Source: an uncultured Acidimicrobiales bacterium | GTDB lineage: Bacteria; Actinomycetota; Acidimicrobiia; Acidimicrobiales; Ilumatobacteraceae | Direction of reading: 5' to 3' | Assembly (NCBI GenBank): GCA_963791625.1 | Contig: CAWBTA010000005.1 | Span: 138,508-202,507, forward strand | Length of the DNA stretch: 64,000 bases | Part shown: positions 21,516-63,669 of the stretch, one piece after another | Layout: each line of letters opens with the position of its first letter | Numbering within the stretch: the stretch's first letter is position 1 | Position numbers and translations under genes: made by a program | The notes under the pieces: model-generated | The model's database searches: none | Told to the model about the DNA's origin: nothing | The model's input: only the letters and a program-made list of their open reading frames with translations

Positions 21516-24762
<3,247 letters not shown>

Positions 24763-39118: not shown

Positions 39119-39377
39119 GGGGTCAGGCCCGATAGGTTGTAGGCGTGCTGCACGCGGTTTGGGATGACGGGCTGGTCATCTTCGGGTATCGAGGGCGAGT
39201 GCTCGACCGCAAGACGGTTGAATCTTTCGCGTCCACTCTCTTCATTGGGCTCGACGATCAGCAGTCGAACGTACTGGAACTGGCGGCTCCGGGCCGACGT
39301 GGGCCACTTGAAGTGCACTCACTCCGCATCGAAATTCACGACGCGACCGAGGCCTTTCTGCAGCGCGCCTGGGTGCC

Positions 39378-42071
39378 GTGGCGCAGCCTCAGCCCGTCGC
39401 TGGCGTGGTTCGCGGCGCGGCCCGGTTGAGTCAGGATGTGGCGCAGGCCGGTCTGGTGTTGCCGTCGCTCATGGTTGACACCGACGGACACGGTGTGGCG
39501 AGCTGGCAGCCCGTCATCAACGACCAGATCGGTGGTCGACTGGCCGACCTCACCCGCACGATGCCGACCGTCGTCGGTGCCCTTCGTCCGTCGCTCGAAG
39601 CCTGGCAGATCACCTCCATGGTCACCACCGCGTTCACCGACGACGCCGTTCGCCTCACGTTGGCCGAAACACCAGTCGCCGATCCTTCGCCCAACAGCCG
39701 CAGTGCCGACGATGTGGTGGCGCGCCGCTTCCTGGGAGCGCTGGCCTCGCGCGACTCTGGCGTCGGAGCGCGGTCGCCGGCGGAACATGCCGCGTTGCAG
39801 CATCTCGCCCAATCGGTGACCCGCTGGACATCGCCGGGAGTCGGACGGTCGGCTACAACCGACATTGCGGTCATGCTGCGCGTCGTCGAGCCGAATGATC
39901 TCGACATCCAGGAAGGCAACGAGCTGGCCGACCTCGATCCCGAGGAATTGCCGTGGCTGGTGGAGATGGTGCTGGCTCCACTCAGCGACCAGAGTCTGTT
40001 GATTCCTGCAGCCGATGTGCTGGCGGATTCGAACAAGGCCGCGTTGTTGAACCTCACCCCGGCCGAAGTCGGGCGCGCCATCAACTTGGCCAAGCGCAGG
40101 GTCGTGCGGGCCGCGCCGTCGTTGGCTGCAGCCTTGGCCGATGATCACGCGACAACCGCTGCACTGCCGCTGGCCGAGATCATCACGTTTCTGCGCGCCG
40201 ATGCGTCACGCCTCGAACTGGCCAAGGTGCGGGTGCTGCTGCCGACCTGGTGGGCGAAGAAGCCGCGCACCAAGGTGAAGGGGGAGGCGAAACCAAGCGA
40301 TGCGCCAGTCACATCCGGCGGGCTCGATGTGGCCTCCATCGTCACCGTCGACTGGCAGGTGGCGCTCGACGGCGAGACGCTCACGTCTTCGGAATTGACC
40401 CGTTTGGCGGAGGCGAAGCAGGAGCTTGTCTACATCCGCAACAAGTGGGTTCGCTTTGACCCCGACAGCATCGCCCAGGTGCTCACGGCGCTGACCCGGG
40501 TGAAACGCGAGCGGTCTACGTTAAGCGCTATTGAAGTCGTACAGATCGGCGCCGATGCCGACCTCGAAGTGTCAGGTGAAGGATGGGTCGAAGAGCTGCT
40601 GGCCGGTCTGCCCGACGACCGCATTACGCCCCTTCCCGAACCCGTTGGTTTCGTCGGGAATCTTCGGCCGTATCAGCAGCGCGGCCTTGGTTGGCTGGCA
40701 TTCCTCCAGCGCATCGGTCTGGGCGGTTGCCTGGCCGACGACATGGGCCTTGGTAAGACGGCACAGCTCCTGGCCCTGCTCGCCCACGAGCGCCAAGGCG
40801 GCACGACGGTGTGGCCGACGCTCGTTGTCTGTCCGCTCTCGGTCGTGCGGAACTGGGAGACGGAATCCGCTCGATTCACACCCGGGTTGAAGGTGCTGGT
40901 CCTGCATGGTCCCGGTCGCCCGAAAGGTGATGAACTGGCGGCGGCCGTTCGCGGTCACGACCTCGTGGTCACCACGTACGCCACCGCCACACGCGATGCC
41001 GTGGCGCTCGCGGCGATTCGTTGGGATCGCCTCGTTGCCGACGAGGCGCAGAACGTGAAGAACCCGAGTACCACCGCCGCACGCGCGCTACGTCGGATTC
41101 CTGCCCGACAAAAGGTTGCCCTCACCGGCACCCCGGTGGAAAATCGGTTGTCCGAACTGTGGGCCGTGTGCGATCTGGTCAACCCGGGTCTGCTCGGCAA
41201 CGCCACCAAGTTCCGTCAGCACTTCGCGGTGCCGATTGAGCGGAACCGTGACGTGGAGCGGACGGACGAATTGCGGGCGATGGTGCAGCCGTTCATGTTG
41301 CGTCGCTCAAAGGCTGACCGCTCGCTCGTGCCCGACCTGCCACCCAAGTTGGAACAAGTTGCGTATGCAACGTTGACGAGAGAGCAGGCAACGCTCTATC
41401 AGTCGGTCGTTGACGTGCTGCTCTCCACGCTCGATCATCTCGATGGCATTGACCGGCGTGGCGCGATCCTGGCGGCGATTACGCGGCTGAAGCAGATCTG
41501 CAATCACCCGGCTCACTACCTGGCCGATGGCAGCGTGCTGGCGGGGCGGAGCGGCAAGCTCGCTCGCTTCGACGAGTTGGTCGGCGACCTGCTCGACGCC
41601 GACGAGAAGATGCTGGTCTTCACGCAGTATCGGGAGATGGGTCTCATCCTCGCTCGACATCTTCGCGAGCACCTGAGGCTCGATGTGCCCTTCCTGCATG
41701 GCGGCGTGTCAAAGACGAAGCGCGACAAAATGGTCGACCAGTTCCAAGAGGGTGCCGGCGGGCCCATTCTGCTCGTGTCGCTGAAGGCGGGTGGCAGCGG
41801 TCTCAACCTCACTGCTGCCAGCCAGGTGGTGCACTACGACCGCTGGTGGAATCCGGCCGTCGAAAATCAGGCCAGTGATCGGGCTTGGCGCATCGGTCAG
41901 ACGCGCACCGTGCTCGTGCACAAGATGGTGTGCCAGGGCACGGTGGAAGAACGCATCGATGCACTGATCGAAGGCAAGAAGGACCTGGCCGACCGTGTGG
42001 TCGGCTCCGGCGAAGGTTGGATCACCGAACTGACCACGTCGGAAATCCGAGATCTGCTGGTGCTGCGATGA
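39378..42071 (+). CDS. SNF2-family helicase (HelZ-like)
   Basis: SNF2_N motifs (LADDMGLGKTAQ, DEAQNVKN), helicase C (motif VI QASDRAWRIGQTR), long N-terminal domain. Confidence 0.9.
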   Translation: MAQPQPVAGVVRGAARLSQDVAQAGLVLPSLMVDTDGHGVASWQPVINDQIGGRLADLTRTMPTVVGALRPSLEAWQITSMVTTAFTDDAVRLTLAETPVADPSPNSRSADDVVARRFLGALASRDSGVGARSPAEHAALQHLAQSVTRWTSPGVGRSATTDIAVMLRVVEPNDLDIQEGNELADLDPEELPWLVEMVLAPLSDQSLLIPAADVLADSNKAALLNLTPAEVGRAINLAKRRVVRAAPSLAAALADDHATTAALPLAEIITFLRADASRLELAKVRVLLPTWWAKKPRTKVKGEAKPSDAPVTSGGLDVASIVTVDWQVALDGETLTSSELTRLAEAKQELVYIRNKWVRFDPDSIAQVLTALTRVKRERSTLSAIEVVQIGADADLEVSGEGWVEELLAGLPDDRITPLPEPVGFVGNLRPYQQRGLGWLAFLQRIGLGGCLADDMGLGKTAQLLALLAHERQGGTTVWPTLVVCPLSVVRNWETESARFTPGLKVLVLHGPGRPKGDELAAAVRGHDLVVTTYATATRDAVALAAIRWDRLVADEAQNVKNPSTTAARALRRIPARQKVALTGTPVENRLSELWAVCDLVNPGLLGNATKFRQHFAVPIERNRDVERTDELRAMVQPFMLRRSKADRSLVPDLPPKLEQVAYATLTREQATLYQSVVDVLLSTLDHLDGIDRRGAILAAITRLKQICNHPAHYLADGSVLAGRSGKLARFDELVGDLLDADEKMLVFTQYREMGLILARHLREHLRLDVPFLHGGVSKTKRDKMVDQFQEGAGGPILLVSLKAGGSGLNLTAASQVVHYDRWWNPAVENQASDRAWRIGQTRTVLVHKMVCQGTVEERIDALIEGKKDLADRVVGSGEGWITELTTSEIRDLLVLR

Positions 42072-45553: not shown

Positions 45554-45627
45554 GCGGGTGTAGTTCAGAGGCAGAACATCAGCTTCCCAAGCTGAGAACG
45601 CGGGTTCGATTCCCGTCACCCGCTCCA
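45554..45627 (+). tRNA. tRNA-Gly(CCC); island integration target
   Basis: GCGGGTGTAGTTCAGAGGCAGAACA...cttCCCaag...GGGTTCGATTCCCGTCACCCGCTCCA; its 3' 43 nt are repeated at 63627-63669. Confidence 0.9.
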
Positions 45628-45729
45628 TTGAATTCCCAGTTCAGAGTGGTACTGCGCTCTCCGAGTCGGCGCTCCGCAAATGCGTCGTCGTGCCAGTTCC
45701 GTGCCACATCCGTGCCATAACGGATACGA

Positions 45730-46910
45730 TCGTCGCCATGGCGTCGCACCAGTTGGGGCAAGCGTGCGCAAGCTTCCGTCGGGGCGATTCCAGGCGCGCT
45801 ACTGCATCGATCTACGTCTGGCACATCGGCGCCGGCGACGTTCCGCACGAAGACGCGAGGCCGACGCGTACCTCGCCTCGCGTGCGCGCCGATATCGACC
45901 GCGGCGTGTGGCTCGACCCGGGCGCCGGCAAGGTGACGGTCGCCGAGTACTCGTCGCGCTGGCTCGCGCGAGCGACCGCAGCTTCGGCCGCGCACCGTCG
46001 AGCTGTACGAGGGTCTGTTGCGCACTCACATCTCCCGGCGCTCGGCGCGACGCGAGATGAGCCAGCTCACGCCGGCCGCGAGTGCGTGAGTGGCGCGCGA
46101 CGATGATCTGCGCGCGGGCAAGCCCGGCGCCTCGACGGTGGCGAAGTGCTACCGACTGCTACACGCAATCTTCGCTACCGCGGTGGAGGACGGCATCGTG
46201 CCGCGCAACCCGTGCATCATCAAGGGCGCGTCGACGAGCGGCCCGCCGAGCGCCCGGTCGCGTCGATAGCCCAGGTGTTCGAGATCGCCGACGCGATCGA
46301 GCCGCGAGTTCCGGGCGATGGTGATGCTCGGCACGTTCTGCGGCCTGCGCCTCGGCGAGATCCGCGCCCTCGGCGTGCGTCATGTCGATCTGCTGCATCG
46401 CACCGTTCGGGTGGAGGAGCAGATACCAGGAGCTCTCGAACGGCGAGCTCGTGCTCGGGCCGCCGAAGTCCGACGCCGGCGTGCGCACGGTCGCGATCCC
46501 GCCGGTGATCATGCCCGAGCTCGAGGCGCACCTCGCGTCGTTCGCGGCGTCGGGGCCGACGGCCTGCTGTTCAGCGACCACGAACGGCGCACCACTGCGT
46601 CGAGCGACGCTTCTACACGGCGTGGAGCCGAGCGATGAAGGCGGTCGGCATCACCGGGCTGCGCTTCCACGACCTCCGCCACACCGGCAACACCCTCGCG
46701 GCCATGACCGGCGCGAGCACGAAGGAACTGATGTCGCGGATGGGCCAGTCGTCGCCACGCGCGGCGCTGATCTACCAGCACGCAACACAGGACCGCGACG
46801 AAGCAATCGCCAACGGCCTGAGTTCGCTCATCGAAGCCCAACGCCCCGACCCCACGCCGCCGACCCCGGTCGTACCGATCAGGATTGGTCTGACTCACGG
46901 ACAGCCTTAA
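45730..46910 (+). pseudogene. Tyrosine recombinase/integrase, broken by at least six frameshifts and an in-frame stop
   Basis: Fragments across three frames read collinearly as an integrase: ASVRKLPSGRFQARY / VRADIDRGVWLDPGAGKVTVAEYSSRWLA / RTVELYEGLLRTHI / GKPGASTVAKCYRLLHAIFATAVEDGIVPRNPCIIKG / RPVASIAQVFEIADAIEPR / MVMLGTFCGLRLGEIRALGVRHVDLLHRTVRVEE / LSNGELVLGPPKSDAGVRTVAIPPVIMPELEAHLASFA / GLRFHDLRHTGNTLAAMTGASTKELMSRMGQSSPRAALIYQH. Confidence 0.7.
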
Positions 46911-46931
46911 CTTGCGAGAGCGACCAGGGCC

Positions 46932-48011
46932 TCATCGACTTCGCTGCGATGTCGTGGATCGCAGGCGGCCCAACGTGCTTCGTCGGCGTCGAGATCGGCG
47001 ATGAATTGGAACCGGGGTCGGACGCGGGCTTCCCAGCCGGGAATGTCGACGGGCCGGGTGAGGGCACGGAAGCGAGTCAGGGTGGAAGTCGCGTTCGTGA
47101 CGTGGCCGCAGTGTGTCGGCCGGATCGAGCGGCTTGTCGCCGCGGTGATCATCGACAACATCTCCCCAGACCTTGAGGACCCACAGTCGACGGACGAGCG
47201 CCTCGTCGATGGATCGATTCGCAAACTGTTGCAAGTCGTACAGATCTCGGCCGAGTGACGTTCGTCGGTAGCGCGCTGTGTTTCTCGGCGCACGTCTTCC
47301 GGCTTCGGCGACAACGGGCACAAGCGGAAGCGCGAAACCGTAGTGACGGTGAATCGGTAGCGGAACAAACCGAGTAGCTCCGGCTCAAGAGCGATAGGCC
47401 GTCGAGCAAACTCGACACTTGCCGCGATCGTGGGCGAGCCCAAGGTCGGATGACTGATCTTCATGTCCCAGTGACGGCCATCGCCACGGCTTGGCTCAAG
47501 GCGATACTGAAACCCACCTTATCTGGTTGCCGTCGATGATGGCGCATACGGCGAGCACGACATCTTCATCAGGTGCCGCTAAGTCGAGGTCGGTTGAAAA
47601 CCGCCCATCATTTCCGAGCCGGCACTTTCGCAAGCTCGTCCCGCCCTTGAACGTGAGGCTGCCGTCATCGAAGACGCCCGCTTCGACGAGCAGGTAGAGA
47701 AGATGGTCTTGCGCGACGTCGAGCAGCGCTGCGTCGTAGGCGTCGGCCCGGCCCATTCCGTGGCGGGCGATCAGCGGGCGCGTGAGCTCGGCCACCGCTA
47801 CGCCTTCCCGATGACAGCTTGCAGCGGAGCAACCAGAGCGTCGATCAAGTTGTACTCGGCAACCCAAACCGGATCGGCGGTGTTGATTGCCGGATGAGCG
47901 AATGGGTTTTTCCGGCTTGGCCTTGTTCGAGCAACCCGTCTTTGAGCAGCGACATGCCCCGCTCGCGTTCACCACCAGCGTGGGAGCAAGTACGCGGCCC
48001 TGTTCGCCCAC
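46932..48011 (-). pseudogene. AbiEii/AbiGii-family nucleotidyltransferase toxin, fragmented
   Basis: N-terminal piece ...YDAALLDVAQDHLLYLLVEAG...LTFKGGTSLRKC...GRFSTDLDL (NTase motif); C-terminal piece in another frame ...RDLYDLQQFANRSIDEALVRRLWVLKVWG... Confidence 0.5.
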
Positions 48012-48735
48012 GCCGCCGTCGGTTGCCCATTGAGCAAGGCAGCCAGCCGGTCGTCATCGCAGTCATAAACGAGACGCGGGTGAGGTGAGCGACGAGATCG
48101 GCCCACGAAGCGAACGAGGACGGACGGATGGCGAGTTGAGCGACAAGAGCTTCGGGACCGAACGCAGGAAGGGCGCTCGCCCAGCGCAACAGATCTAGCT
48201 TGCGATCGATCAAGAACTTCGACGACGGAGCCAGCATTTTGTGCGACTTCGCAGCCGATTCAAATCGCACGATCGACACATACCGGCGAAGCCCGTCGGG
48301 TAGCCGCGTCGACGATGGAATCCAGACACTCACCGGTGAGCCGGGATCGCGATCGAGGTAACCGAGATGCCAAGCAGCCGTCGCGCCGCAGAGCATGAAC
48401 CCGGAATCGGGATCACGAGCACGCCAAGCACGCAGACCAATGTACGGATCGAGGACCTCACCAACACCCGGTGGCACGAACGCCCACACGCCATGAAAGG
48501 GCAGCGTGACCAACCATCCGAGCCGACGCAACTCATGCACGGCCGAATCAACCGTCCGATCCATTCCCACCTCGACGAGCCGTTGCGCCAAGTCATCACG
48601 TGTCACGACAGTCGGCATGTCTCGCGACAGGCTCGGGCCACGAGCCCTGCCGCCCACGTCGGCACGTGTTGATCCGGCCCGGTGGGGCTTTCCAAGATGG
48701 CGACGGTTGAACTCATAGCGGATATTGTACCCCAT
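47845..48735 (-). CDS. AbiEi-family antitoxin/transcriptional regulator; 3' end abnormally long, running into abiEii
   Basis: VVTRDDLAQRLVEVGMDRTVDSAVHELRRLGWLVTLPFHGVWAF (AbiEi_4 wHTH) ...FMLCGATAAWHLGYLD...; the 166-nt overlap with the toxin fragment suggests a further frameshift. Confidence 0.55.
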   Translation of the reverse strand: MGYNIRYEFNRRHLGKPHRAGSTRADVGGRARGPSLSRDMPTVVTRDDLAQRLVEVGMDRTVDSAVHELRRLGWLVTLPFHGVWAFVPPGVGEVLDPYIGLRAWRARDPDSGFMLCGATAAWHLGYLDRDPGSPVSVWIPSSTRLPDGLRRYVSIVRFESAAKSHKMLAPSSKFLIDRKLDLLRWASALPAFGPEALVAQLAIRPSSFASWADLVAHLTRVSFMTAMTTGWLPCSMGNRRRRGRTGPRTCSHAGGERERGMSLLKDGLLEQGQAGKTHSLIRQSTPPIRFGLPSTT

Positions 48736-50883: not shown

Positions 50884-52185
50884 TGTTGCGGGTCACGACG
50901 TTGTACGCCGGTACGGCCGCGACCACGGCGGCCTACTACACCGCGTATCTCACCGAAGGCCGACGGCGAGTTGCCGGGAAAGTGGATGGGTCGGCAGGCC
51001 GCAGCGTTCGGACTGAGTGACACGGTGAGCACCGAGCAGTTAGAGGCGTTACTTAGCGGCCGTGACCCAATCGGTGGGACACCGCTCGGCAACGTGCTGG
51101 TCGATCGCACGAGGGCCGATGGCACGGTCGTGCGCGCCGTCGCCGGTTTCGACGCGACGTTGTCGGCACCGAAGTCGTTGTCGGCGTGGTGGGCGCTTAC
51201 CGGCGATGATCGGCTCGCCGAGTGTCACGACGTCGCGGTCGCGGCCGTGGTGCACCAGCTCGAACGTTTCGGCGCGACTACCCGCGTCAGGCACAGCGGC
51301 GGACGGCTGCACCCCGACACCCAAGGTTTGACGATCGCGGCGTTTCGCCAGTCGACCAGCCGGGCTGATGACCCGCAGCTGCACACGCACCTCGTGATTT
51401 CCAGCAAGGTGCAGACCGACGACGGCCGATGGCTCGCGCTCGACGCCCGCATGTTGAAGGGTCACCAACGCGCCTTCGGTGGGCTCTATCAGAGCGTGCT
51501 GCGCGCCGAACTCACGCACCGGTTCGGCGTAGTGTTCGGCGACATCGTGAACGGCCAGGCCGAGATCGCCGGTGTTCCGGAAGTGCTCATCGACCGATTC
51601 TCGAAACGGACCGCCGAGGTCGACCGTGCCGTTGTCGACAAGCTCGCCTTGTTCTGGAAACGAGAGGGGCGCGATCCAACATCGGTCGAACGAGCGGCGA
51701 TCACTCGCGGCTGTGACCGAAGCGGAAGAAGAACTCGGCGAGGCGCGCCACGCGAGGTACCAAGCGAACATCGAGCTGGGTGGGTCGTAATGTACTCACA
51801 AGACGCGGAGCACGACGCCGACTCGGTGAAGCCGATCAGGGCGTCGGCACTGCCATCGCCAACGTCGATCGTGCCGAATGAAGCAGCAAAGCCGACTGCC
51901 AAAGCGCTCGCAGCCGCCGAGCAAGCTGCTGGGAAAGCAAACGATGCCATCCGACGACACGAGTACGCCGAGCGCTACGGCTACCCGGCCCGCCTCGACA
52001 GTGCGACGCGGATGGTCGAGACCCTCCACACCTGGCACGGCTGGGCCACCGGCCACGAAGTGACAACAGACCGAACAATCGACCTCGCCAACGAGCTAAC
52101 GACTGCGTCGGGTCCGTGTATCGCCAGACTCGCCGAGCCGCTCGAATCTTGGCTCCGTGACCGCGGCACTCGAGTTCTGCTGTGA
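50883..52185 (+). pseudogene. MobF/TrwC-family relaxase (relaxase domain only), frameshifted
   Basis: N-terminus MLRVTTLYAGTAATTAAYYTAYL in one frame; core FDATLSAPKSLSAWWAL...FRQSTSRADDPQLHTHLVISSK...IDRFSKRTAEV in another; no helicase domain follows. Confidence 0.65.
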
Positions 52186-52813
52186 GCTGCGCGCAGCGCC
52201 ACAGCGCCGACCTCGTGCGATCAACTTCGGAATCGATCTCTAAGCGGCGGACCCAGATCCAGCTTGCAGGGAAGGTGCTTCCGAGGGTTTACAGGCGTTC
52301 GATGGCACGTGCGACGCCAATCGGGCGCCACTGCCTGCGCTACTGCATGTCGTTAACGAAATGCTCTGAGATGAAAATACGCTATCCCGATCTGGCACTA
52401 GGAGGTCGAGATCCAGGGGAGTTGCCTGGACCATGGTGCTCTGAGTTCCTGCCTCTCAAAATCGGCCGTGTTTCTGCCAGTGAAACACATGTTCGATCAT
52501 GTGTGAAACAATTCAAGCATCTATCGCATGTGACGCGCCATAGTCTGCTACACTGACTCACATGCAACAAGACATCGGCCTTTCGGTCGTTCAGGACCCG
52601 GCCGATCCCATGGTGCCGTTGGGTGGCCGAGCGAGGACCGCAACCCGGGCCCGGGCTCGATACGCCCTACCAACTGATCGCCTCAAGTTTCAAGCACAAG
52701 TTGATGCGCTACGCTCTTTGCAGCGCTGTCGAAGAACCGGCAGGAGCCGGTAAGTAGTGAGCAGCTTGCTGCCTACTTGAGGGTTGCGGTGAGTACCGCC
52801 GGCCTCAATAAAC

Positions 52814-53539
52814 GTGTTCTTCGTTGAGTCAGGCCTTCTTGAGAAGTCGGCCAAGGGGCGCTACTTACCGACAGACGCTGTGATGGAGTTTCAGCGAAAG
52901 CATTCATTCGATCCGCAACAAGCTGGCGCTGTTCTCAAACCGGTACTGACCCAAACCTGGTACGCAGACGTCGTGCGCCAGCGTTTGCTGTTTGGCCCTG
53001 CTGACGTCGATGACCTAGTCAAGGTGCTGGCCGACGACGCTGGCGCCGATGCTTCATTCAAGTCACAGCTCGAATCCCTGATTGATTGGCTGGCACTAGC
53101 GGACGTGATAGCCGTCGCCGCCGATCGGCAAGTGCGGATCGTAGGCGACGAAGCCCGCGGTACCGTGTCGACTGAGACGACCCCTGCGGTGCCGCCAGTA
53201 GCACGGCTTCTAGCCAGTGACGATGCGGACGTGGCGGGTGCAAGCCCGATACCGAGGACCTCGCGCCGCTCGGGCGAGCAGCCTCCTGCCAACCATTCGT
53301 CTGAGCCCCCGGTCTTGAGCCTGGCTTTCGACCTTCGACTATCGGCATCGGATCTGGCCCGCCTCACAGCCGAACAAATCCGGCAGATATTCGAAGGGGT
53401 CGGCCAAATAGCCGCCATCCGAGCCACGCTCGGCGACTCCCTGAACCTCTCGCGAAATGCGAAAGGAGGTGATTTATATGGACAACTCCAACCAAAACGT
53501 ACTGCCCCTGTTCAAGACAGGGATGCGCTGTTCCGGTAG
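52814..53539 (+). CDS. Hypothetical protein (island cargo)
   Basis: ORF with typical high-GC codon usage; no recognisable motif. A strong SD (AAAGGAGGTGA) plus ATG at 53478 lies inside its 3' end. Confidence 0.35.
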   Translation: MFFVESGLLEKSAKGRYLPTDAVMEFQRKHSFDPQQAGAVLKPVLTQTWYADVVRQRLLFGPADVDDLVKVLADDAGADASFKSQLESLIDWLALADVIAVAADRQVRIVGDEARGTVSTETTPAVPPVARLLASDDADVAGASPIPRTSRRSGEQPPANHSSEPPVLSLAFDLRLSASDLARLTAEQIRQIFEGVGQIAAIRATLGDSLNLSRNAKGGDLYGQLQPKRTAPVQDRDALFR

Positions 53540-54189
53540 GCGGCGTGTACGAGGACCAATTCGGAACGACCTCGTTTCACGACGCCCATCGGACGTTTCC
53601 CCCTTGTATCGGGCGGAAGGGCGAAGCAGCCCTTCGGCGCCTGATCAAGGCAGCCTGACGGTCAGTCAGATACGGGTGGCGCGGGCTGCAACCTGCGCCA
53701 CCCACCCAGCATAGCGCTCTGCCGGGAGAACACCAGCGCCAGCGACGCCATCTCGCGGTAGCCGTTGCACAATCGGCCCGTGTCGAGGTTCGAAACGCCT
53801 ACGGCTGTCGAGGTCCGGCGCTAGCTCGCTGTGGGCTGACTAAGGCGCCTTACGAGACTGTTGGTGGGCCTTTTTGCGGCAGTCGTTGGTTAGGACACTT
53901 TGTCCATCGAGGCAACTAAGTGGTCGGTGGAACCTGTAGAGGGTTCTCATTCCTGGAGCTTCTCGTTGAACCCGTCGGCGTCGTCGATGAGGACGCCTTC
54001 GAGCACCCGGTGGACCAGACCCGCAAAAGCCGACCTCGGCCAAACGATGCCTTTACCTCCGCCATCGTCACAGGATCGAGCGAAATCCACCCGAGTGCAA
54101 CCTACGAACACCGTCCGCATGGTGGGATTTCCTCGCGCCTTCCTTGTCGAACGGGCAATGTTCCCGGCAAACGCCGAAATCAGTCTGCG

Positions 54190-55345
54190 ATGTCAATGCC
54201 AATCTCGGCGATCAATAATGCTTCGAGCGGCAAACCTTGTGGCGATGAGCGAGACCGGGACGCCGGCGACATGTTCCGTCTCTTCGACAAACCTCATCGT
54301 CGCTGAGGTCAACTGATCGAACCGCCGAGCGCTTCGGTTGCTGGCGTCGATGTAATCGGCGAACGTCAACGCAATGTCTGTGAGCGAGTTGAGCTCGCTC
54401 GATCGGCGCTAGCAACGCCCAGTCAAACTCGGCGACGTGTTCTCGGCTTGCCGCTGACGGAGCCTTTCTCCATCTGTTCGAGCTCACCGCGATCGAGACC
54501 CGAACGGTCGGCGATCTCGCCAAAAGTGATCTGGGCAGACATCGGTCCCGACGTGCCATCTGTTCCATCTTGAACGCGGATCGGGTAGGTACGGAAGACG
54601 CCGATAACCTTCCGCACCCGTCGGTGGGCCGATGCCGGCTTCGGCGAGGCAACCCGACGATGTCGTGTCCCTTGAGGTGACATGGGGATACGGTCCGTGC
54701 AGGAGGCTTAGCGCTGTCCCCTGGGTTCCTTCCTGGAGGAGGATCTTCTGCCCGGCCCGATAGGCCTCGTCGAGAACCTCGCCGCTCGGGCGGAGGGGTA
54801 CGGGGCGCAGTTCAGGCATGTCGGCAGCGCGCCTCATCGTAGGCAGTCGCCGAACCCCTCGATCCAGTTGGCCGCCTCGGTTCAAAATCCGTTTGTGCGG
54901 TCGTGGCACCAACGCCCTTTCCCGTTGATCCGATTCGGGCCACGATGCCCTGTTCCAGCTCCCGGTCCCAGGCTTCAATGATGATAGCGTTCGGGGTCGA
55001 TGGCGAGCCGATCAGACTCGACGCTACTATCGGCGATTTCGCGAAGGAGAACATCCAGATCCAGCACGGCACCAGGACCAATCACAATCCTGGCGCGTTT
55101 GATTCGCCCGCGTGCCGGATGGAAGCGATCGATGTGTGAACCCCGACCCAGGGGCACTTTATGTCCGGCGTTAAGGCCCGCCGACCCGCACGAGAATGTC
55201 GTATTCAGGCGCGAGGAAGAACGCAATGTTTCCCTTGCCTTCGCTTCCCGTACTGACCTCCCACCAGTAGGTCGACGAGCTGCTCACAACCACGCGGCAA
55301 CAACCCCACTCGTGCCGCACATCGCGTTACGATTGTCTGCCCGCG
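54190..55345 (-). pseudogene. Divergent adenylosuccinate-synthetase-like (PurA/PurZ-like) gene, multiply frameshifted
   Basis: Collinear fragments: VGGQYGSEGKGN / LNAGHKV...IGPGAVLDLDVLLREI / [14 protein letters not shown] / [24 protein letters not shown]...GIGP / [12 protein letters not shown]...GKPRTRRR / ELNSLTDIALTFADYID. About 30% identity to the host purA at 22820-24094. Confidence 0.6.
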
Positions 55346-55393
55346 CTCCGAGCGGTACGTGTCGATTACTACGTCTGCCTCGGTACCAAGTTC

Positions 55394-55870
55394 CTAGTCA
55401 CCTGACTCCGTCGGATCGGCTTGCACCTGGGTGTACGAGCCGAGCTCCGCAATGCCGCTCGCACCCCGCTGGTTCTCCACATACCGGTCGGCAAGAACGC
55501 CCACGGGTGGAGTGAGGTGGACATGAACTACGTCGTGGCCAAAGGCCTCGTGGATATGACGCAGTTGGTTGGGGATGCGGATCGAGTCGACCACGATTAA
55601 GCCATCAAAGACCGAGCCGCTCGGTGTTTCGCAGCAAGGGCATCCGCAACCCATCGGCCGTCGGTTCGCCGATCAAGGTCCTCACCGTACTGCTGTAGGG
55701 CTTGGCGCTCTTGCAGAAGAATCACATTATCGTTTCGTGCGTGAGCGTTCATAAAGCGAACGACGAGTGCTGACGTGATCAGCACCGAACTTCACGGCGA
55801 GTGCCTGTGCGAGTTCCGATTTGCCAGGACGCGACAGGCCCTGACAGGACAACTATGCGCGGCCTCTATG
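55394..55870 (-). pseudogene. Small P-loop (nucleotide/nucleoside) kinase, frameshifted
   Basis: Walker A GLSRPGKSELAQALAVKFGADHVSTR, then in other frames ...LIVVDSIRIPNQLRHIHEAFGHDVVHVHLTPPVGVLADRYVE... Confidence 0.45.
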
Positions 55871-56601
55871 TCGACTCCCTCACTGTCGAGTTCGTCGGCT
55901 CACGGGCACCGCGGCAACGTGTAGACCGTCACACCCACGCCATGTCGGCATAGCTCTTCATCGACGACATCGGCGACAAGTTCCCGATACCCTTAACACT
56001 TGACCCGTTCCGATTCTCGGCATGTGTACGGTGGCATCCAGCCGCAAGGCCGCCCGACGAACCTCACGAAGACCGTCGCGGAAGCCCCCCTGGTACCGTA
56101 TGATGCTGCCTCATCGCTCGCCCCGAATCCTTCTTGGGCGACGACGCTCGCCACGAAGACGCTCTCATCAGCACTCAGGATGTGCGCGTTTCCGAGTTGC
56201 AGATTCGTGGGCGATGCAATTGTCCAGTTGTGGAATGCGTCAGCGTTACGCGTTTGTACTGAGTTGACAGTTGACCCGCAAACCCTCTCTTGCCCCAGGC
56301 GCGCGCTCGATCATCGACGACGTGCACAATAAGTCGGGCGTGGCCGTCAGCGGGAGGCTCCGATGCGTTGCCAGTGACATACGCCAGGTGCGTGGAGTCG
56401 TCCGCGTTTCTGTTCAAAAGAGGATGTACGAGGGCGAGCACACGGGGATATCGGCGACCCGGATACGCCGGGGTGCCGACTGCCTGTACGTGGAATGCCC
56501 CAGGTTTTCCCCAAGATCATCAACGGACTTCGACGTGAAACCTAGCCGCCGTGCAGGAGGCGAGCGAGCGAGAGTCGATCTGTTCGCCACGCTCGACCGG
56601 C

Positions 56602-57273
56602 TCACTCCAGGTTCTTGAGGCCGTCGCATAGTGTCGAGCGTGGTAAGGCAGATGGTTCATCGACGCGATCCGAGACACGCGAGGTAGCGATGCACGCGAC
56701 CTGATGTGTGGTCCCAGAAACCACGCGCCGCAGTATCGCCTCGGTCGAAACATCGAACTGCGCCCGCATCTGCATGATCACATCGATGTCGAGCGGCTCG
56801 GAATCGATGTCGTCGATTGGAAGGGCGATGTTCGGCATGAGAAGTTCCGAGGCAGCGATGTTGCAAAGCAGTTCGAGTTGCCAGTCGTCGCTGTCCTCAT
56901 CGGGTACGGCTCCGAGCCCCGTCCGGTAGCGAACAGCCGACGCCGCGTCGGCAAAGAACGAGTGCGCTATCTCGTGCGCTATCGAGAACCGAAGGCGCCC
57001 TCGTGGCCGCCGAGGGTTGTACTCGATGGTTGAACCGCTGGACCCAGCCACTATTCGCGGGTCGGTGACCGTGTCAAGAGGTACGACGTCAAGTCCAAGC
57101 AGCCGAGCCAGCTGGAGCGGATCGAAGGGTGGCCCGGTCCAGCCGTCTGCTGCGGCTCGAAACACAGCGTCTCGTGCTCGGTCGACTATCGCAGCAATCG
57201 GATCCTTCCCCTGCGCGAACTCGCGAACAGATTCGTTGGTCCACTGATCGCCCATTCGCGCAAGCCTACGCAT
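56602..57273 (-). CDS. ImmA/IrrE-family metallo-endopeptidase
   Basis: HExxH motif SIAHEIAHSFF within a COG2856-type domain. Confidence 0.8.
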   Translation of the reverse strand: MRRLARMGDQWTNESVREFAQGKDPIAAIVDRARDAVFRAAADGWTGPPFDPLQLARLLGLDVVPLDTVTDPRIVAGSSGSTIEYNPRRPRGRLRFSIAHEIAHSFFADAASAVRYRTGLGAVPDEDSDDWQLELLCNIAASELLMPNIALPIDDIDSEPLDIDVIMQMRAQFDVSTEAILRRVVSGTTHQVACIATSRVSDRVDEPSALPRSTLCDGLKNLE

Positions 57274-57391
57274 TGTGGTAGCTCAATCACTGCCAGGCGG
57301 GACGCCACCCATTGCATTATTCGGTTTGGTGGCACCCGAAGACCTGAATCGATTTGCCTGCGGACCGCAGCCTTCCGGTTACTGTCAGTCC

Positions 57392-57957
57392 ATGGACGTC
57401 ACCGATCTAGAGATGCTACATCCGCGACTGTTCCATATGGCAGACGCGAACAGTTGGGACGGGATACGGACACACGGCCTGTTGTCCACATCTCGCCGCC
57501 CGATCTCTTTGAGGTCGAGGAACCGCGGCGCAGCTCGATCGAATCCGATCGTCGACCGGAAGCTGTTCAGCTCAGCCACGCGAGACACGGTGTTGTGAAA
57601 ATTCGGGACAACAAGCCGATGACAACTCCGGCGCTGGAGAAGTGTCTCCAAGACGGCATGACACCAACCGATTGGTATCGAAATCTCACCGGCGTTCTTT
57701 TCCGGCTGACGGCCGAGCGAGTCGAGACTCTTCTTGACGCACGCACAACCGCGGCCGCCCCCACCTCGTACTCACGCTCGACACGTCTTCGCTGCTCCAA
57801 GCCCACCTTCCTCGGATATCGCTTAGCCCGATCAACAGCGGTGCGACCCTGTACAAGCCTCCACCACGAGGAGCAGCGACGTTTCGCTCCGTCGCTGCCT
57901 ATCCATGGGACGAGGACCGGCGGCGGCGTGCCGCCGAGGACGCTATTGTCGAACTGA
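57392..57957 (+). pseudogene. Unknown frameshifted gene divergent from immA (N-terminus loosely DarT/DUF4433-like)
   Basis: MDVTDLEMLHPRLFHMADANSWDGIRTHGLLSTSR then a frame switch to ...TDWYRNLTGVLFRLTAERVETLL... Confidence 0.25.
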
Positions 57958-58155
57958 CAGTCGACGAGGGGGTCACGACATTATGCAATCTCATCGCTGC
58001 GCACTTGCGCAACCCGGACGGTTCGGTCGAGGACTTAGGATGAACACCCAACACGCTCGTCCGTACGATCGCCCAATGTTCGACGTGCCCGGCTCGTTCG
58101 TCGCGCCGCCGTCCATCGGCGCCGAAGTCCAACATCACGAATCCACGACCATCTG

Positions 58156-58560
58156 ATGGCCGTTGCTCCGCGGACGGACGAGGTGGGGCTCCAGCAACTC
58201 GTGTTTGAGTTTCACGTCGCGTTCGGGCTCCCCCGAGCAGACCGACCAACGATTGACGTCCCCGATGACCTTGCTGCGCTGCGGAACGCTCTGCTCAAGG
58301 AAGAGAGTGCCGAGTTGATTACAGCTTGCGAGCAGCGGACCTAGTAGCGATTGCTGACGGAATTGCCGACGTTCTCTACGTTGTCTTCGGGACTGCAGTG
58401 ACGTACGGATTGGATGCTACCAGCCTCGTTCGAGAGGTTCACCGGTCAAACATGTCCAAGCTTGGTCCTGACGGACTTCCTATACTCCGTGAAGACGGCA
58501 AGGTCATCAAGGGCCGAACTATTCTCGGCCAGACTTCAATTCGCTTCTGTTCGACACCTC
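58156..58560 (+). pseudogene. MazG-like / HisE-like all-alpha NTP pyrophosphohydrolase, interrupted by a stop/frameshift
   Basis: LQQLVFEFHVAFGLPRADRPT...LRNALLKEESAELITA | DLVAIADGIADVLYVVFGTAVTYGLD...VHRSNMSKLGPDG..REDGKVIKG across two frames. Confidence 0.55.
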
Positions 58561-58595
58561 GCACTAATTGTCAATCGCGGACCAGCCGAAACACC

Positions 58596-58663
58596 CGTTA
58601 TCCCTGGTCACGAAAACACGGCAAGCCGAATTCCCAAGCCGGCGAACGCCGGTCCGTGTGCCC
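58596..58663 (+). repeat. Degenerate internal copy of the att/tRNA-3' region (relic att of a tandem insertion)
   Basis: GGTCACGAAAAC-CG--AAG---AATTCCCAAGC-----AACGC-GGT-CG....CCCGCTCC aligns with the 63599-63669 attR context, including 30 bp of flanking sequence, with a deletion inside the T-arm. Confidence 0.5.
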
Positions 58664-59129
58664 GCTCCCATTGTCTTCCCTGGCCAAAGGGAATTTTTGT
58701 GGGCCGCTGATGAGTCGCCCGATCATGGCCGTAGACGGGAACGGCTCGCAGTCGGCGCAGCTACGATGAAAGTGTGACAGTTGACCTTGACACGCTGCCT
58801 TCTCAGCTTGCCCGCACCATCCGGGCGGCACGTCTGCGCCGTGGCGTGATACTCCGAAACCGTGCAGCTCGACCGGGCCTGACCCGATCATAGCGAATGC
58901 GTGCCGGTCTAAGTTGGCCGGCCGACCCAACTGGTTACTTCTCGACAAGCTCACTCCACCCTGAAGCCCGAACAGTGCCCTAAAGGCGTAGACCTGATTA
59001 CCTGAAGATCCCTGGCACTTTCCTGCTTCACGCCTGGCCAAACCGTTCTCTGTATTCGACCTCTCGAGCGGCGTTTCCAGTGTCGGCTGAGCGACCGAAT
59101 AGCGCCAAGTACGCGAAGGGCCAAGGGCA

Positions 59130-59538: not shown

Positions 59539-61245
59539 GGCCAGCGCTCGGTCGGGTGCCTCGTGAGCGTGCTGTGGGGTGGTTCAGGCCCGGTTCAGGC
59601 CGTGGCGATGATCCAACCGCCGTCGTGGGTGAGGCCGAGGTTGAGGAGTCGTTTCAGATTCACTGCGGCGCAGCGTTGCGACCACGCGATCCGGTTCTTG
59701 GTGATTCCTCGGTATCTCAAGCGTCGGTGGTTGTCTTTGACGAGCCATGCGATGGTCCGCTCTATCATCGGGCGATGCTGGCGATACACCGTGTCGAACC
59801 CGACCGTTCGGGCCTGGAGACGGGCGTCCGCGAGGAGTTGATGGTGTTCGTGCAGGCTGATCGAACGTCCGCCTTTCGCGGTGGTGCATGACTTGCGGAG
59901 CGGGCATGTGCGGCAGTGTTTCCCGAACGTCGCCGTCCTGGCCGGGCTGATCGTGACCGTGATGTTGGCCGGGCACGTGACCGTCCCCGAGGTCAGATCA
60001 ATGTTGAAATCATCGAGAGTGAACCCGCCCTCAACGGCAGGTTGGAGCGGACGGGGCTTGATGACCGGAGCCATCTGCTTCTTCGCGAGGTGGTCGCGGA
60101 GTTCGCCTGAGGAATACGCGCTGTCACCGAGCACTTCGGTCCCGGCCGGTTCACCATCGAGCAGTCCGGGTGCGGCTTGGGTGTCGCCGTCGTTGCCGGG
60201 GCCGAGGTCGCAACCGGTGATCAGACCGGTGTCGGGTTCGGCTGCGACGTGAGCTTTATAACCGTCACGCTGCGAACGGCGGGTCTTGTGCGCATGGCGT
60301 GTCTCCGGGTCGACCGTGGAAATCGTGCGGTCTTTCGCAGTGCCACGACTGATCCGCCACCGGCCGGGCCGGTCACCCGGCTCCACATCCTGGCCGGCAA
60401 CCAAAGCCAACAGGGCGACCGCGTCTTCCTGCACATCAGACAAAACGAGTCCGCCGTCTTGGAGATCCTCAACCGCGCCCAGCAACGTCAACGCGTCATC
60501 GACGAGTTCGGTAACGAGCCGTTCGCGGTCGACCGGATCGGCCCAATCACACGACGGACGGCCAGGCTCGAGATTGTGATGCCGCACCCGAACACCTGCG
60601 ATTTCGGGGATCAGTTTGCGGACCTTTCGGATCTGCGCTGCGAGCATCGTGACCGTGTCTTGGCGGGCGACCGTGTCGTCTAACACCGTCGAATCAAGAG
60701 CGCGTCGATGCTTACCTTTCAACACGCCAGTCTCAGCGATCACCGCACGCACGGCGTCGAAAATGCGTTGCGGAGCCTCGGACTGGCGGAGCTTGTTGCG
60801 CCACAACACCAGCACTGTCGAGTGGAACGCCTCATCCATCAACGACAAACCCGTCGCCATCTTCCAACGGATATCGGTCTCCAAACGTCCGACCGCTTCA
60901 CGGTCAGAGAGGCCTTCCAACGCCTGCAAGACCATCACGGACGCGATCACATCCGCCGGGACCGACGGGCGGCCGCGCTTCACGGGGAACAGATCAGCAA
61001 ACATCTCATCCGGGAACAACCGGTGCCGATGCTCAGCCAACAACGCGTACACAGTGCCCGGTTTCAGGAGATGGCCACACACATCCTTCGCGTCGAAAAA
61101 GGCACGATCGGAAGTCGAAGATCCCTGCATCCCCCCATTCTTTTCGATCCACGCCAACTTCGCGAATCCGACGACCAAGCAGGATTGCTCAGCAGTCTCC
61201 TAGTTGAACTACGGCAAATTGGACATTGGCGGACGATCGCTGGCC
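59539..61245 (-). mobile_element. IS1182-family insertion sequence (approximate ends)
   Basis: Imperfect terminal inverted repeats GGCCAGCGCTCG (59539-59550) and CGATCGCTGGCC (61234-61245) flank the transposase. Confidence 0.4.
59595..61178 (-). CDS. IS1182-family (IS5 superfamily) transposase, intact
   Basis: 527 aa with the N-terminal HTH region typical of IS1182 (...PADVIASVMVLQALEGLSDREAV...) and a DDE domain. Confidence 0.85.
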   Translation of the reverse strand: MVVGFAKLAWIEKNGGMQGSSTSDRAFFDAKDVCGHLLKPGTVYALLAEHRHRLFPDEMFADLFPVKRGRPSVPADVIASVMVLQALEGLSDREAVGRLETDIRWKMATGLSLMDEAFHSTVLVLWRNKLRQSEAPQRIFDAVRAVIAETGVLKGKHRRALDSTVLDDTVARQDTVTMLAAQIRKVRKLIPEIAGVRVRHHNLEPGRPSCDWADPVDRERLVTELVDDALTLLGAVEDLQDGGLVLSDVQEDAVALLALVAGQDVEPGDRPGRWRISRGTAKDRTISTVDPETRHAHKTRRSQRDGYKAHVAAEPDTGLITGCDLGPGNDGDTQAAPGLLDGEPAGTEVLGDSAYSSGELRDHLAKKQMAPVIKPRPLQPAVEGGFTLDDFNIDLTSGTVTCPANITVTISPARTATFGKHCRTCPLRKSCTTAKGGRSISLHEHHQLLADARLQARTVGFDTVYRQHRPMIERTIAWLVKDNHRRLRYRGITKNRIAWSQRCAAVNLKRLLNLGLTHDGGWIIATA

Positions 61246-62788: not shown

Positions 62789-63626
62789 CCCTGTCTGTCT
62801 GTTGAATTCGAACTATAGGCAACAAGCGGTGAGGCGACGACCGATATGAGTCAGATTACTCATGTTAACGGCAGGAAAGTTGCACCGATTCATATCTTTG
62901 TATCAACCGGTCCGGAAGAGTTGAGGTGAGCGTCACCGCAGGCTGCAACTGCCGGGGTGGCCAAGAAATTTGAGACTGGTTGTTGTCCATCGATGGAGTG
63001 TTGTCCCGAACGCTCGGACTGGAGATTCGTGGCGCTTTCGGCGATAGGGCCCCTCGCCACCGCCAGGCTCGTAAGCAGCGCCAGATCGCAGCGACCGCTT
63101 TCGTCAAGGGGCGATGGCCGAAGGGTGACGGCATTGGTGACGCGTCTGCTGGTGCAACATGATCGAGAGCCGTCAGGCCGACCCGCGTCGCCTTGCCTGT
63201 TGGCACAAGGCGGATGCGTCGGCGAGGTGGCTCGCGGTCCTGATTGGTCATGGCGGCTCCGTGTCCGACGGCCAGACTTGCTGTGGACCTAGTTCGGGTC
63301 GGGTGGGCGATGCCACCCATCCCTTTCACGCCACCGTCAAACCGACCGCATTCACGACTCAGTTCCACACCGAAGTGTCAAGCACCCAGCGGACCGCGGC
63401 CCAAAACGGTCAACCACGTACGGGAGCCTTAGTGTCAGGCATGTAACGGAAATGCACACAGAACTGCAACACATCAGCTGAAACGCCAGGGTACGTTCGC
63501 GTGCCATCTGCGTGCCACAACGGAGCGAGACGGGCCAATGTCGGGCGGACGGGGCAACACGAGGAAACATGGCTTGACCAGGCCAAACGCCCGTTTCGCC
63601 AGGTCACGAAAACGCGAAAAGGCAAA

Positions 63627-63669
63627 TTCCCAAGCTGAGAACGCGGGTTCGATTCCCGTCACCCGCTCC
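63627..63669 (+). repeat. attR: direct repeat of the tRNA-Gly 3' half (43 bp, identical to 45584-45626)
   Basis: TTCCCAAGCTGAGAACGCGGGTTCGATTCCCGTCACCCGCTCC present at both sites. Confidence 0.85.

Follow-up and report, generated by a model that had tools for sequence, protein, structure and literature searches.

Within a 64,000-nt stretch of DNA from an uncultured bacterium of the Ilumatobacteraceae (contig CAWBTA010000005.1 of assembly GCA_963791625.1, positions 138,508 to 202,507; hereafter the window), a damaged locus on an integrated element is, with near certainty, one copy of a conserved, horizontally mobile cassette. In intact relatives, the core of this cassette comprises three genes in the order M78 peptidase fused to a macrodomain (M78::macro), nucleoside monophosphate (NMP) kinase fused to a PurZ-like synthetase (kinase::PurZ-like), and DUF7002. 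The cassette is widespread and uncharacterized, and its published mention amounts to a note on gene neighborhoods (PMC12522546). By analogy with known systems, we propose tentatively, and at somewhat less than an even chance, that it is a DarTG-like conflict or defense module coupled to the conversion of guanine into 2-aminoadenine nucleotides. As an overall best explanation of the locus, cassette identity and mechanism taken together, this account is on balance probable.

The central gene of the locus (54193..55868, minus strand) encodes the kinase::PurZ-like fusion as a single gene, whose reading frame in the window is disrupted by one TAG and about 25 frameshifting indels. In the encoded protein, the last 350 residues fall into the Pfam family Adenylsucc_synt and form a domain of the short-PurA/PurZ type (54193-55300, minus strand; PF00709, E = 6e-40, in three frames), and the first ~190 are recognized by models of P-loop kinases (~55320-55868, minus strand; Walker-A, AAA_17 match). 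The PurA-like domain is ~30-32 % identical to the purA of the host (22820-24094) and reads [16 protein letters not shown] where host PurA reads [11 protein letters not shown]. This alignment bears out the original prediction, made from the letters of the window, of a PurA homologue ~30% identical to host purA with a divergent loop. The P-loop kinase that had been placed beside this gene is indeed present, but it belongs to the same gene, since the kinase and PurA-like parts form one fused gene in all intact relatives. The closest homologue (P0001) is intact, 548 aa long, and 92 % identical to the fusion in the window, and the best 120 homologues are mostly ~545-aa proteins in which the kinase domain is fused to the synthetase domain. 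In the underlying search, 6,970 of the 8,000 candidates scored had E <= 1e-10, ordinary PurA enzymes included.

Next to the fusion lies the gene for the M78 (ImmA/IrrE, CapP-like) peptidase::macrodomain protein (55865..57273, minus strand). Its N-terminal part is an intact open reading frame (ORF) of 223 aa (56602-57273, minus strand; HEIAH, PF06114), and its linker and macrodomain half (55865-56601, minus strand) is broken by at least 10 indels. The M78 ORF of the window is accordingly only the N-terminal domain of a ~480-aa protein, so that the flanking ImmA/IrrE protease of the original prediction is present, and the gene is in fact an M78::macrodomain fusion. Divergent from it, on the plus strand, lies a DUF7002 pseudogene (57392..58043; PF22531, 2.7e-18), which appears as three tblastn segments in frames 2, 1, and 3 and whose product is predicted to have a DarT-like ADP-ribosyltransferase fold. 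It is followed by a PRA-PH/MazG-like NTP pyrophosphohydrolase gene of the DR2231 type (58156..58567, plus strand; PF01503, 3.6e-15; at least two frameshifts), which confirms the MazG/HisE-like gene that had been expected nearby. The DUF7002 gene between the ImmA/IrrE and MazG genes had been absent from the earlier gene list, and the two conserved partners of the synthetase, M78::macrodomain and DarT-like DUF7002, went unrecognized. Overall, DUF7002 and MazG lie on the plus strand, divergent from M78::macro and kinase::PurZ-like. No PurB remnant was detected in the island in a search at E <= 10, in which only the housekeeping purB (21516-22823) was matched.

The cassette was confirmed at no fewer than 584 loci in a scan of one genome per species that covered many phyla, and 80 of these loci were fetched for the neighborhood counts that follow. 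M78::macro lies directly upstream of the fusion in 71 of the 80, and DUF7002 directly downstream in 70. The taxa covered are Actinomycetota, Acidobacteriota, Planctomycetota, Chloroflexota, Verrucomicrobiota, Myxococcota, Pseudomonas, and one metagenome-assembled genome (MAG) of Nitrosopumilus. In Mycobacterium sp. 050272, M. setense, and M. gordonae, the neighborhood is fixed, with a PurB-like lyase on the opposite strand, PRA-PH, a 480-aa M78 protein, the fusion, and DUF7002, and the start of the fusion gene overlaps the M78 stop by 4 nt. The three core genes are translationally coupled. Unbiased clustering of all flanking ORFs revealed nothing else conserved beyond the core. PRA-PH occurs in 16 loci (by tblastn) and the lyase in nine, both in Actinomycetota only; the actinobacterial PurB paralogue scores 349 bits against TIGR00928 (cut-off 326). 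Because M78 and DUF7002 recur while PRA-PH, the lyase, and similar genes stay lineage-bound, the unit is a three-gene core with lineage-specific nucleotide-metabolism accessories. In close relatives of the window copy (L189, L190, and the Ilumatobacteraceae loci L016 and L018), the order is M78::X, fusion, DUF7002, and PRA-PH; in the window, and apparently in the 95.7 %-identical contig L001, the DUF7002-MazG pair is inverted and lies on the other side.

Several further genes accompany the cassette in particular loci. A ~220-aa sigma-70/extracytoplasmic function (ECF)-like factor is encoded just upstream of M78::macro in 10 loci, apparently all from Acidobacteriota (L026-L029, L031, L034, L036, L046, L069, and L074, at ~7.5-8.4 kb in each), and it may be a dedicated regulator of the cassette. 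Genes resembling dCTP deaminase (PF22769) adjoin the cassette in five to six loci (L010, L011, L017, L022, L064, and L073), and deoxynucleoside-kinase genes (PF01712) do so in three to four (L019, L024, L037, and L051); both are further deoxynucleotide-pool accessories.

The synthetase domain is the part of the cassette for which the closest comparison is available. Asp13 is kept in 99 % of PurA enzymes and is replaced by Ser in 100 % of 147 phage PurZ and PurZ0 proteins (PMC12884076). In addition, PurZ carries an insertion after a conserved Arg-Val that presses on C2', has no functional equivalent of E. coli R303, and at the donor site has the guanine-recognizing Asp changed to Asn or Gln (PMC8342488). 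These positions were compared in an alignment of the PurA enzymes of E. coli, the host, and Pyrococcus horikoshii, the PurZ proteins of phages phiVC8 and S-2L, two PurZ0 proteins, a Bacillus phage homologue, and 24 members of the cassette family. The P-loop reads GSEGKG in the cassette family versus GDEGKG in bacterial and archaeal PurA; 20 family members and 11 viral fusions share the former motif without exception, as does the copy in the window. Likewise, the family has PNAGH where PurA has (H/T)NAGH, and GSTG where PurA has GTTG. The loop after Arg-Val reads PIRV, five to eight residues, and SGP in the family versus [11 protein letters not shown] in PurA, and the copy in the window, [16 protein letters not shown], contains the insertion typical of PurZ. 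The column of E. coli R303 is occupied by T, K, N, or R in the family versus a conserved Arg in PurA. The Asp of TFxD is kept in the cassette family, as it is in PurZ0 and PurA and unlike in PurZ, which suggests that GTP would be the donor; this assignment leans on the biology of PurZ0.

In a neighbor-joining (NJ) tree, a distance method applied here to 345 columns with 200 bootstraps and one archaeal sequence, the cassette family is monophyletic (100 %), and it groups with all phage PurZ and PurZ0 proteins to the exclusion of P. horikoshii PurA, again with 100 % bootstrap support. The domain also matches the PHROG family "2-aminooxy adenylosuccinate synthetase" (1.5e-68). It falls short of the cut-off of each of the curated models: it scores 207 bits against NCBIfam PurZ (NF038379; cut-off 300), 294 bits against archaeal-type PurA (NF003295, the top-scoring model; cut-off 368), and 205 and 177 bits against the housekeeping PurA models TIGR00184 (396) and NF002223 (402), respectively. 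We therefore read the synthetase as an archaeal-PurA-like scaffold with a putative PurZ-type substrate pocket, belonging to a separate clade of the "Ser group" outside curated PurZ, and the residues in the pocket predict a guanine nucleotide, ribo or deoxy, as the substrate. The original prediction had taken this PurA paralogue for a PurZ-like enzyme and not for a divergent housekeeping copy, a view upheld by Ser in place of Asp13, PNAGH, GSTG, the Arg-Val insertion, and the NJ grouping. Both the phylogenetic placement with phage PurZ/PurZ0 instead of PurA (NJ, 100 %) and the substrate-discriminating residues, which are PurZ-type at the Asp13, NAGH, GTTG, and Arg-Val sites, point the same way.

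The cassette enzyme thus shares considerable similarities with phage PurZ and PurZ0, namely a short PurA scaffold, Ser for Asp13, PNAGH, GSTG, the insertion after Arg-Val, the lack of a conserved R303 equivalent, and membership in the same NJ clade; like PurZ0, it keeps the Asp of the guanine-recognizing (N/T)KxD-type motif. However, it is fused to an N-terminal NMP kinase, is only 31-39 % identical to the phage proteins, occurs mainly in cellular genomes, and has M78::macro and a DarT-like protein as partners. The archaeal short PurA (P. horikoshii PH0438, PDB 2D7U/5K7X) is its best match in sequence and fold and has the same two deletions relative to bacterial PurA, but its site is of the IMP type (GDEGKG, TNAGH, GTTG, and [11 protein letters not shown]), and the cassette enzyme differs from it at all four positions. 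A GenBank note on phiVC8 PurZ (L119, 8082-9113) gives a protein of Solibacter usitatus (Acidobacteria) as the most similar sequence, which fits the bacterial family as a close cellular relative of PurZ.

The C-terminal ~160 residues of the M78 protein are a macrodomain of the ALC1/TARG1 class. A profile of this macrodomain family matched BT1257 (7e-48) and Streptomyces coelicolor SCO6735 (5e3b; 1e-44) as well as ALC1 and TARG1, and the structures matched include 2fg1 and 2afc, with E-values ranging to 2e-12. SCO6735 is reported to cleave thymidine-linked ADP-ribose from DNA (PMC9411070). As with DarG, a macrodomain of the TARG1/ALC1 class is encoded together with a predicted transferase. The M78 domain matches the PADLOC model capP (1.8e-19 for the ORF of the window, 4e-16 for the locus L002) and contains HEIAH, which qualifies it as CapP-like. 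In this respect it resembles the peptidases of the CapH/CapP regulators of the cyclic-oligonucleotide-based antiphage system CBASS and others, but it carries a fused macrodomain, and a helix-turn-helix/XRE partner gene of the CapH type is missing beside the cassette both in the window and in the majority of loci. Between the M78 domain and the macrodomain, all loci have a conserved segment of ~65 residues (CTAIGFTAKG ... VGxPPYPG ... PRVLG; L002 9252-9450, alignment A2 columns ~20-90).

A DUF7002 profile searched against the sequences of solved structures (PDB) gave no match, DarT included. An AlphaFold2 model built from 35 sequences (predicted local distance difference test 95, predicted template-modeling score 0.91) adopts an ADP-ribosyltransferase fold of the DarT type. 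The invariant residues of DUF7002 include His15, Arg53, Arg70-Asp71, FFW, Tyr118, Asn147, and Glu188, and the conserved His, FFW, and Glu are compatible with ADP-ribosyltransferase activity. The cassette differs from DarTG in three respects: by sequence its predicted transferase falls outside the DarT family and matches only Pfam DUF7002, its macrodomain is fused to an M78 peptidase and not to the C-terminal toxin-binding domain of DarG, and the kinase::PurZ-like gene sits between the macrodomain and transferase genes. A recent survey of Legionella (BMC Genomics 2025, PMC12522546) describes, in its accessible text, a family of ADP-ribosyltransferase-like proteins, Lmac_3114, as DarT-like with the motifs Hxx, FFW, and xxE, and reports an adenylosuccinate-synthetase domain in 60 % of its neighborhoods, where it is interpreted as supplying purine or NAD. 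Lmac_3114 is almost certainly DUF7002. That same text makes no mention of PurZ-type residues, the kinase fusion, M78::macrodomain, or MazG/PurB.

The kinase domain of the fusion has an adenylate-kinase fold and gives a weak match (2.5e-8) to the PADLOC model dCTPase. It is reminiscent of the defensive kinase-dCTP deaminase, in which a kinase-like domain is likewise fused to a nucleotide-converting enzyme, except that the converting domain in the cassette is PurZ-like and not a deaminase. The MazG protein of the cassette has the all-alpha HisE/MazG fold, and its best solved relative is Deinococcus DR2231 (E = 2e-19), which is dUTPase-like. Its similarity to S-2L MazZ is limited to 26 % identity over 47 aa (BLASTP, E = 0.007), and the guanine determinants of MazZ, I56 and D60 (PMC8342488), are not conserved, as they align to Tyr and Gly. 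The MazG-like gene had originally been taken as a hallmark of MazZ, which the DR2231-like character and the lack of I56/D60 contradict. None of the viral contigs with PurZ contains a MazG gene of the cassette type.

In the mechanism that we propose, DUF7002 would act as a predicted toxin that ADP-ribosylates nucleic acid, and the macrodomain would reverse this modification, so that the two would form a DarTG-like writer/eraser pair; the fused CapP-like protease would tie the release of the toxin to a signal of stress or infection. In parallel, the fusion enzyme may convert (d)GMP, Asp, and GTP to N6-succino-2-amino-(d)AMP, PurB from the cassette or the host would process this succino intermediate to 2-amino-(d)AMP, and the kinase domain would phosphorylate the latter to the diphosphate, with MazG possibly supplying monophosphates. 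The outcome could be depletion of dGTP and/or the poisoning of replication by 2-aminoadenine (Z) nucleotides, which would parallel the action of the defensive kinase-dCTP deaminase. A defense-type role had been offered as the second choice in the original prediction, and it is the one that best fits the genomic context.

The first choice of that prediction was a relic of the phage PurZ/MazZ pathway, and for this reason the viral relatives deserve consideration. About 55 IMG/VR contigs have a standalone PurZ-like gene, and almost all of these also encode homologues of a DpoZ-like polymerase, DutZ/DmtZ, or gp66. On ~20 IMG/VR contigs, a PurB-like lyase gene lies ~350 nt downstream of the standalone PurZ-like gene (among them L141, L144, L147, L148, L150-L154, L156, L160, L164, L167-L169, and L186), and many Z phages may thus bring their own PurB. 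Ten "viral" loci on nine contigs (L132 and L157 being two ends of one) carry the kinase::PurZ fusion, and two of them have the full bacterial trio. In at least two, L126 (7189-11581) and L157 (810-10748)/L132, the fusion gene stands in a replication module beside a family-A DNA polymerase and an SNF2 helicase, together with a Pam3-gp34-like gene in L132/L157; these may be Z-genome phages that use the fused enzyme, and their gene context supports an activity in deoxynucleotide synthesis. It is nonetheless very improbable that the locus is what decay has left, within an island, of a phage pathway for replacing A by Z in the phage genome. The PurZ-type active-site signatures and NJ placement, the MazG-fold gene close by, the phage contigs with the same fusion beside a family-A polymerase, and the viral contigs that pair PurZ with its own PurB are all consistent with such an origin. 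However, DatZ, DpoZ, DutZ/DmtZ, and MazZ homologues are absent within 10 kb in the window and in the 80 bacterial loci, unlike in nearly all standalone viral PurZ contigs, so that the neighbors anticipated for an intact pathway (DatZ/DpoZ) did not materialize. Moreover, MazG is DR2231-like with Tyr and Gly at I56 and D60, the genes conserved beside the fusion are those for M78::macro and a DarT-like protein, and on the carrier element, which encodes an integrase, a relaxase, and AbiE, no phage structural genes were seen. The phage pathway borrows PurB and GMP kinase from its host, and the actinobacterial cassette encodes its own PurB paralogue and an adenylate-kinase-fold domain. A leftover phage Z-genome pathway is therefore not supported, and the PurZ/MazZ relic of the original prediction is set aside.

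Three further explanations start from the same genes. The cassette might serve self-modification, in that kinase::PurZ-like, MazG, and PurB would make dZTP for a partial replacement of A by Z in the DNA of the element or host as protection against restriction, the DarT-like/macrodomain pair being an addiction module only. This would account for the actinobacterial form encoding PurB, an NMP kinase (both borrowed from the host in Z phages), and an NTP pyrophosphohydrolase, and for its carriage on integrative elements, and a Z-cluster expressed in E. coli does put Z into chromosomal and plasmid DNA (PMC8342488). However, expression of that cluster is toxic (PMC8342488), no Z-selective polymerase or dATPase is found in the window or the 80 loci, the MazG and PurB genes are absent in most phyla, and the close coupling among the core genes points to a function that all three share; we consider self-modification improbable. 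A signaling system, to which we give little credence, would have the DarT-like and fusion enzymes make an ADP-ribosylated or 2-aminoadenine nucleotide that the macrodomain senses, with the fused M78 protease as the effector. Macrodomains bind ADP-ribose derivatives, the three genes are translationally coupled, and the fusion of a sensor to a protease resembles other nucleotide-signaling defense systems, but the closest relatives of this macrodomain are hydrolases of ADP-ribosylated DNA or protein, and most loci encode no target for the protease. Finally, an ordinary metabolic role, as a spare or alternative adenylosuccinate synthetase in purine salvage, is scarcely credible. It would agree with the annotation "adenylosuccinate synthetase" in the sources and with the overall sequence and fold being closest to archaeal PurA; against it, the catalytic Asp13 is invariably Ser, the scores lie below every PurA cut-off, the host already has bona fide purA and purB, and the distribution is patchy and horizontally mobile, with partners of the conflict type.

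Several observations also count against the DarTG-like module with guanine-to-2-aminoadenine conversion that we favor. Archaeal PurA outscores PurZ for the synthetase domain (294 vs 207 bits), a search of the PDB gave E = 5.6e-45 for P. horikoshii PurA vs 2e-25 for PurZ, and the Foldseek TM score is 0.88 for archaeal PurA vs 0.76-0.82 for PurZ/PurZ0. The tree that separates the family from PurA contains a single archaeal sequence and was built by NJ only, and the TFxD Asp and the variable R303 position do not discriminate between ribo and deoxy substrates. The trio is not obligatory, as DUF7002 is absent from 10 and M78::macro from nine of the 80 loci. Defense genes are present among the neighbors without being overwhelming, none of the PADLOC models covers the PurZ-like domain, DUF7002, MazG, or the lyase, and a literature search that combined adenylosuccinate synthetase or PurA-like with defense, ImmA, macrodomain, or DUF7002 yielded no functional study.

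Published work on PurZ (PMC12884076, PMC8342488) sees the enzyme as an innovation of phages that descends from archaeal PurA and regards Z-base DNA as a purely viral trait. The present analysis places a well-conserved enzyme with the PurZ signature and an NMP kinase as its fusion partner in no fewer than 584 cellular genomes at the species level, within an operon of fixed composition that also encodes a DarT-like transferase and a protease-macrodomain protein. A far-reaching possibility, unlikely but not negligible, is that cells, and not only phages, make 2-aminoadenine nucleotides, and that this cross-phylum, kinase-fused PurZ clade of bacteria and occasionally archaea would be an effector in a DarT-like/macrodomain immune cassette, acting by draining dGTP, by poisoning replication, or by providing Z-marked DNA as a substrate for the ADP-ribosyltransferase. 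If this were true, the clade would be the closest cellular relative of phage PurZ, and the history leading from archaeal PurA through PurZ0 to PurZ would be revised. If the enzyme acts on guanine nucleotides, it would bring new chemistry to nucleotide-based immunity or toxin-antitoxin systems and would link base replacement to DNA ADP-ribosylation. The copy in the window adds little alone, and the family to which it points merits experimental work, for which cultured sources with the cassette exist: M. gordonae DSM 44160, M. setense, Sorangium cellulosum So ce26, and Pseudomonas sp. ICMP22404.

The cassette in the window is cargo of an integrative, mobilizable element at a tRNA-Gly gene, in agreement with the earlier proposal of an integrase/relaxase element. 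A perfect 43-nt direct repeat is formed by attL, at the 3' end of tRNA-Gly(CCC) (45584..45626, plus strand; gene 45554-45627), and attR (63627..63669, plus strand), and the two copies bound an integrated element of ~18 kb. A tyrosine integrase (45690..46910, plus strand; at least four frames) was recognized from reading translations (LPSGRFQARY ... GLRLGEIRAL ... HDLRHTGNT ... LIYQH), and a TrwC-type relaxase (50971..52185, plus strand; PF08751, 1.2e-63) has only its N-terminal domain in frame. A degenerate internal element end with its att site (58580..58675, plus strand) is 80 % identical over 60 nt to 63576-63635 and then ~70 % identical to att. Since it comes right after the MazG gene, the cassette lies at the right end of an inner, older element, and this third att copy suggests a composite or tandem element. 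An AbiEi antitoxin ORF (47845-48735, minus strand; PF09407) is followed by two shorter ORFs on the minus strand (47496-48011 and 46907-47464), which possibly represent an AbiEii toxin gene with frameshifts. The island's outer part harbors an intact DDE transposase of 527 aa (59595-61178, minus strand; DDE_Tnp_1, DUF772), which has no frameshifts, in contrast to the genes next to it. A megablast search of a plasmid database with the island found no match, and a search of Joint Genome Institute (JGI) metagenomes for an intact copy returned an M78 match of only 55 % identity as its best.

In other genomes, the cassette also keeps company with mobile and defensive genes. A separate pair resembling capH (XRE) and capP lies directly upstream of it in L189, a Shedu SduA_C domain adjoins it in L190, and its neighbors in L002 are a serine recombinase, Prim-Pol, SLFN, HNH, and T5orf172; restriction-modification genes, PDC-S19, and integrases occur in other loci. 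These neighbors are suggestive of defense islands and mobile elements, as individual cases and not as a quantitative enrichment.

No macrodomain, fusion enzyme, DUF7002, or MazG can be made from the deposited copy in the window. Relative to intact homologues, the kinase/PurA and MazG genes and two further genes are frameshifted, so that the frameshifts of the original prediction are real features of the deposited sequence; its description of the locus as a fossil fares less well, as the spectrum of lesions is atypical for decay. As a reference we used a Logan contig (L001, found in 5 samples) with an intact fusion gene, which aligns to positions 52045-56397 of the window over 4.3 kb with 95.7 % identity. 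The window differs from it by 52 indels, mostly of 1-2 nt (47 insertions and 5 deletions), and by 108 substitutions with a transition/transversion ratio of 57:51. Inside the fusion gene, ~30 indels stand beside ~31 substitutions. Only two stop codons arise from substitutions, and 34 of the codon differences are non-synonymous and 14 synonymous. Mismatches within 5 nt of an indel make up 25 % of the total (11 % expected), and the indels are clustered, with 0-9 per 250 bp.

In bacterial pseudogenes, deletions normally predominate over insertions, and indels are far rarer than substitutions; the spectrum here looks more like long-read consensus error. We lean slightly toward the explanation that these genes are not pseudogenes in the organism, the frameshifts being consensus errors left uncorrected in a metagenome assembly from long reads, in which this island would have low coverage and vary between strains. 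The 47:5 excess of insertions, the ratio of about one indel per substitution in the fusion gene, the transition/transversion ratio, the mismatches near indels, their clustering, and the few substitution stops all fit such errors, as does the origin of the contig in the MAG of an uncultured member of the Acidimicrobiia. Real decay of the window copy is a serious possibility, a little short of even: almost all core genes over 45 kb are intact, and within the island the M78 N-terminal domain (672 bp), the insertion-sequence transposase (1.6 kb), and three ORFs at 61-63 kb are free of lesions. The damage to the integrase, to the relaxase, and possibly to AbiEii is what a dead element would show, and the ~30 % divergence of the internal att indicates real age. 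Dense frameshifts in an island of a MAG are not to be read as a fossil without support from reads. A reductive genome like that of Mycobacterium leprae was considered and rejected, given the intact core genes and the 65 % identity of host PurA to Ilumatobacter/Acidimicrobiia sequences.

Outside the island, a core gene for an SNF2-family helicase (~39145-42071, plus strand) has one frameshift near 39415, which puts the first 90 residues in another frame; its relatives are 975 aa long, compared with an ORF of 897 aa in the window. Indel lesions are thus not confined to the island, and this counts toward consensus error as well.

The housekeeping purine genes of the host lie at 21.5-24.1 kb of the window. 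This pair of purA and a lyase gene was considered as a second cassette and rejected, because both score above the curated PurA/PurB equivalog cut-offs: purA (22820-24094, minus strand) with 577 bits against an NCBIfam cut-off of 402, and purB (21516-22823, minus strand) with 430 bits against 326. The two genes are neighbors and overlap by 4 nt.

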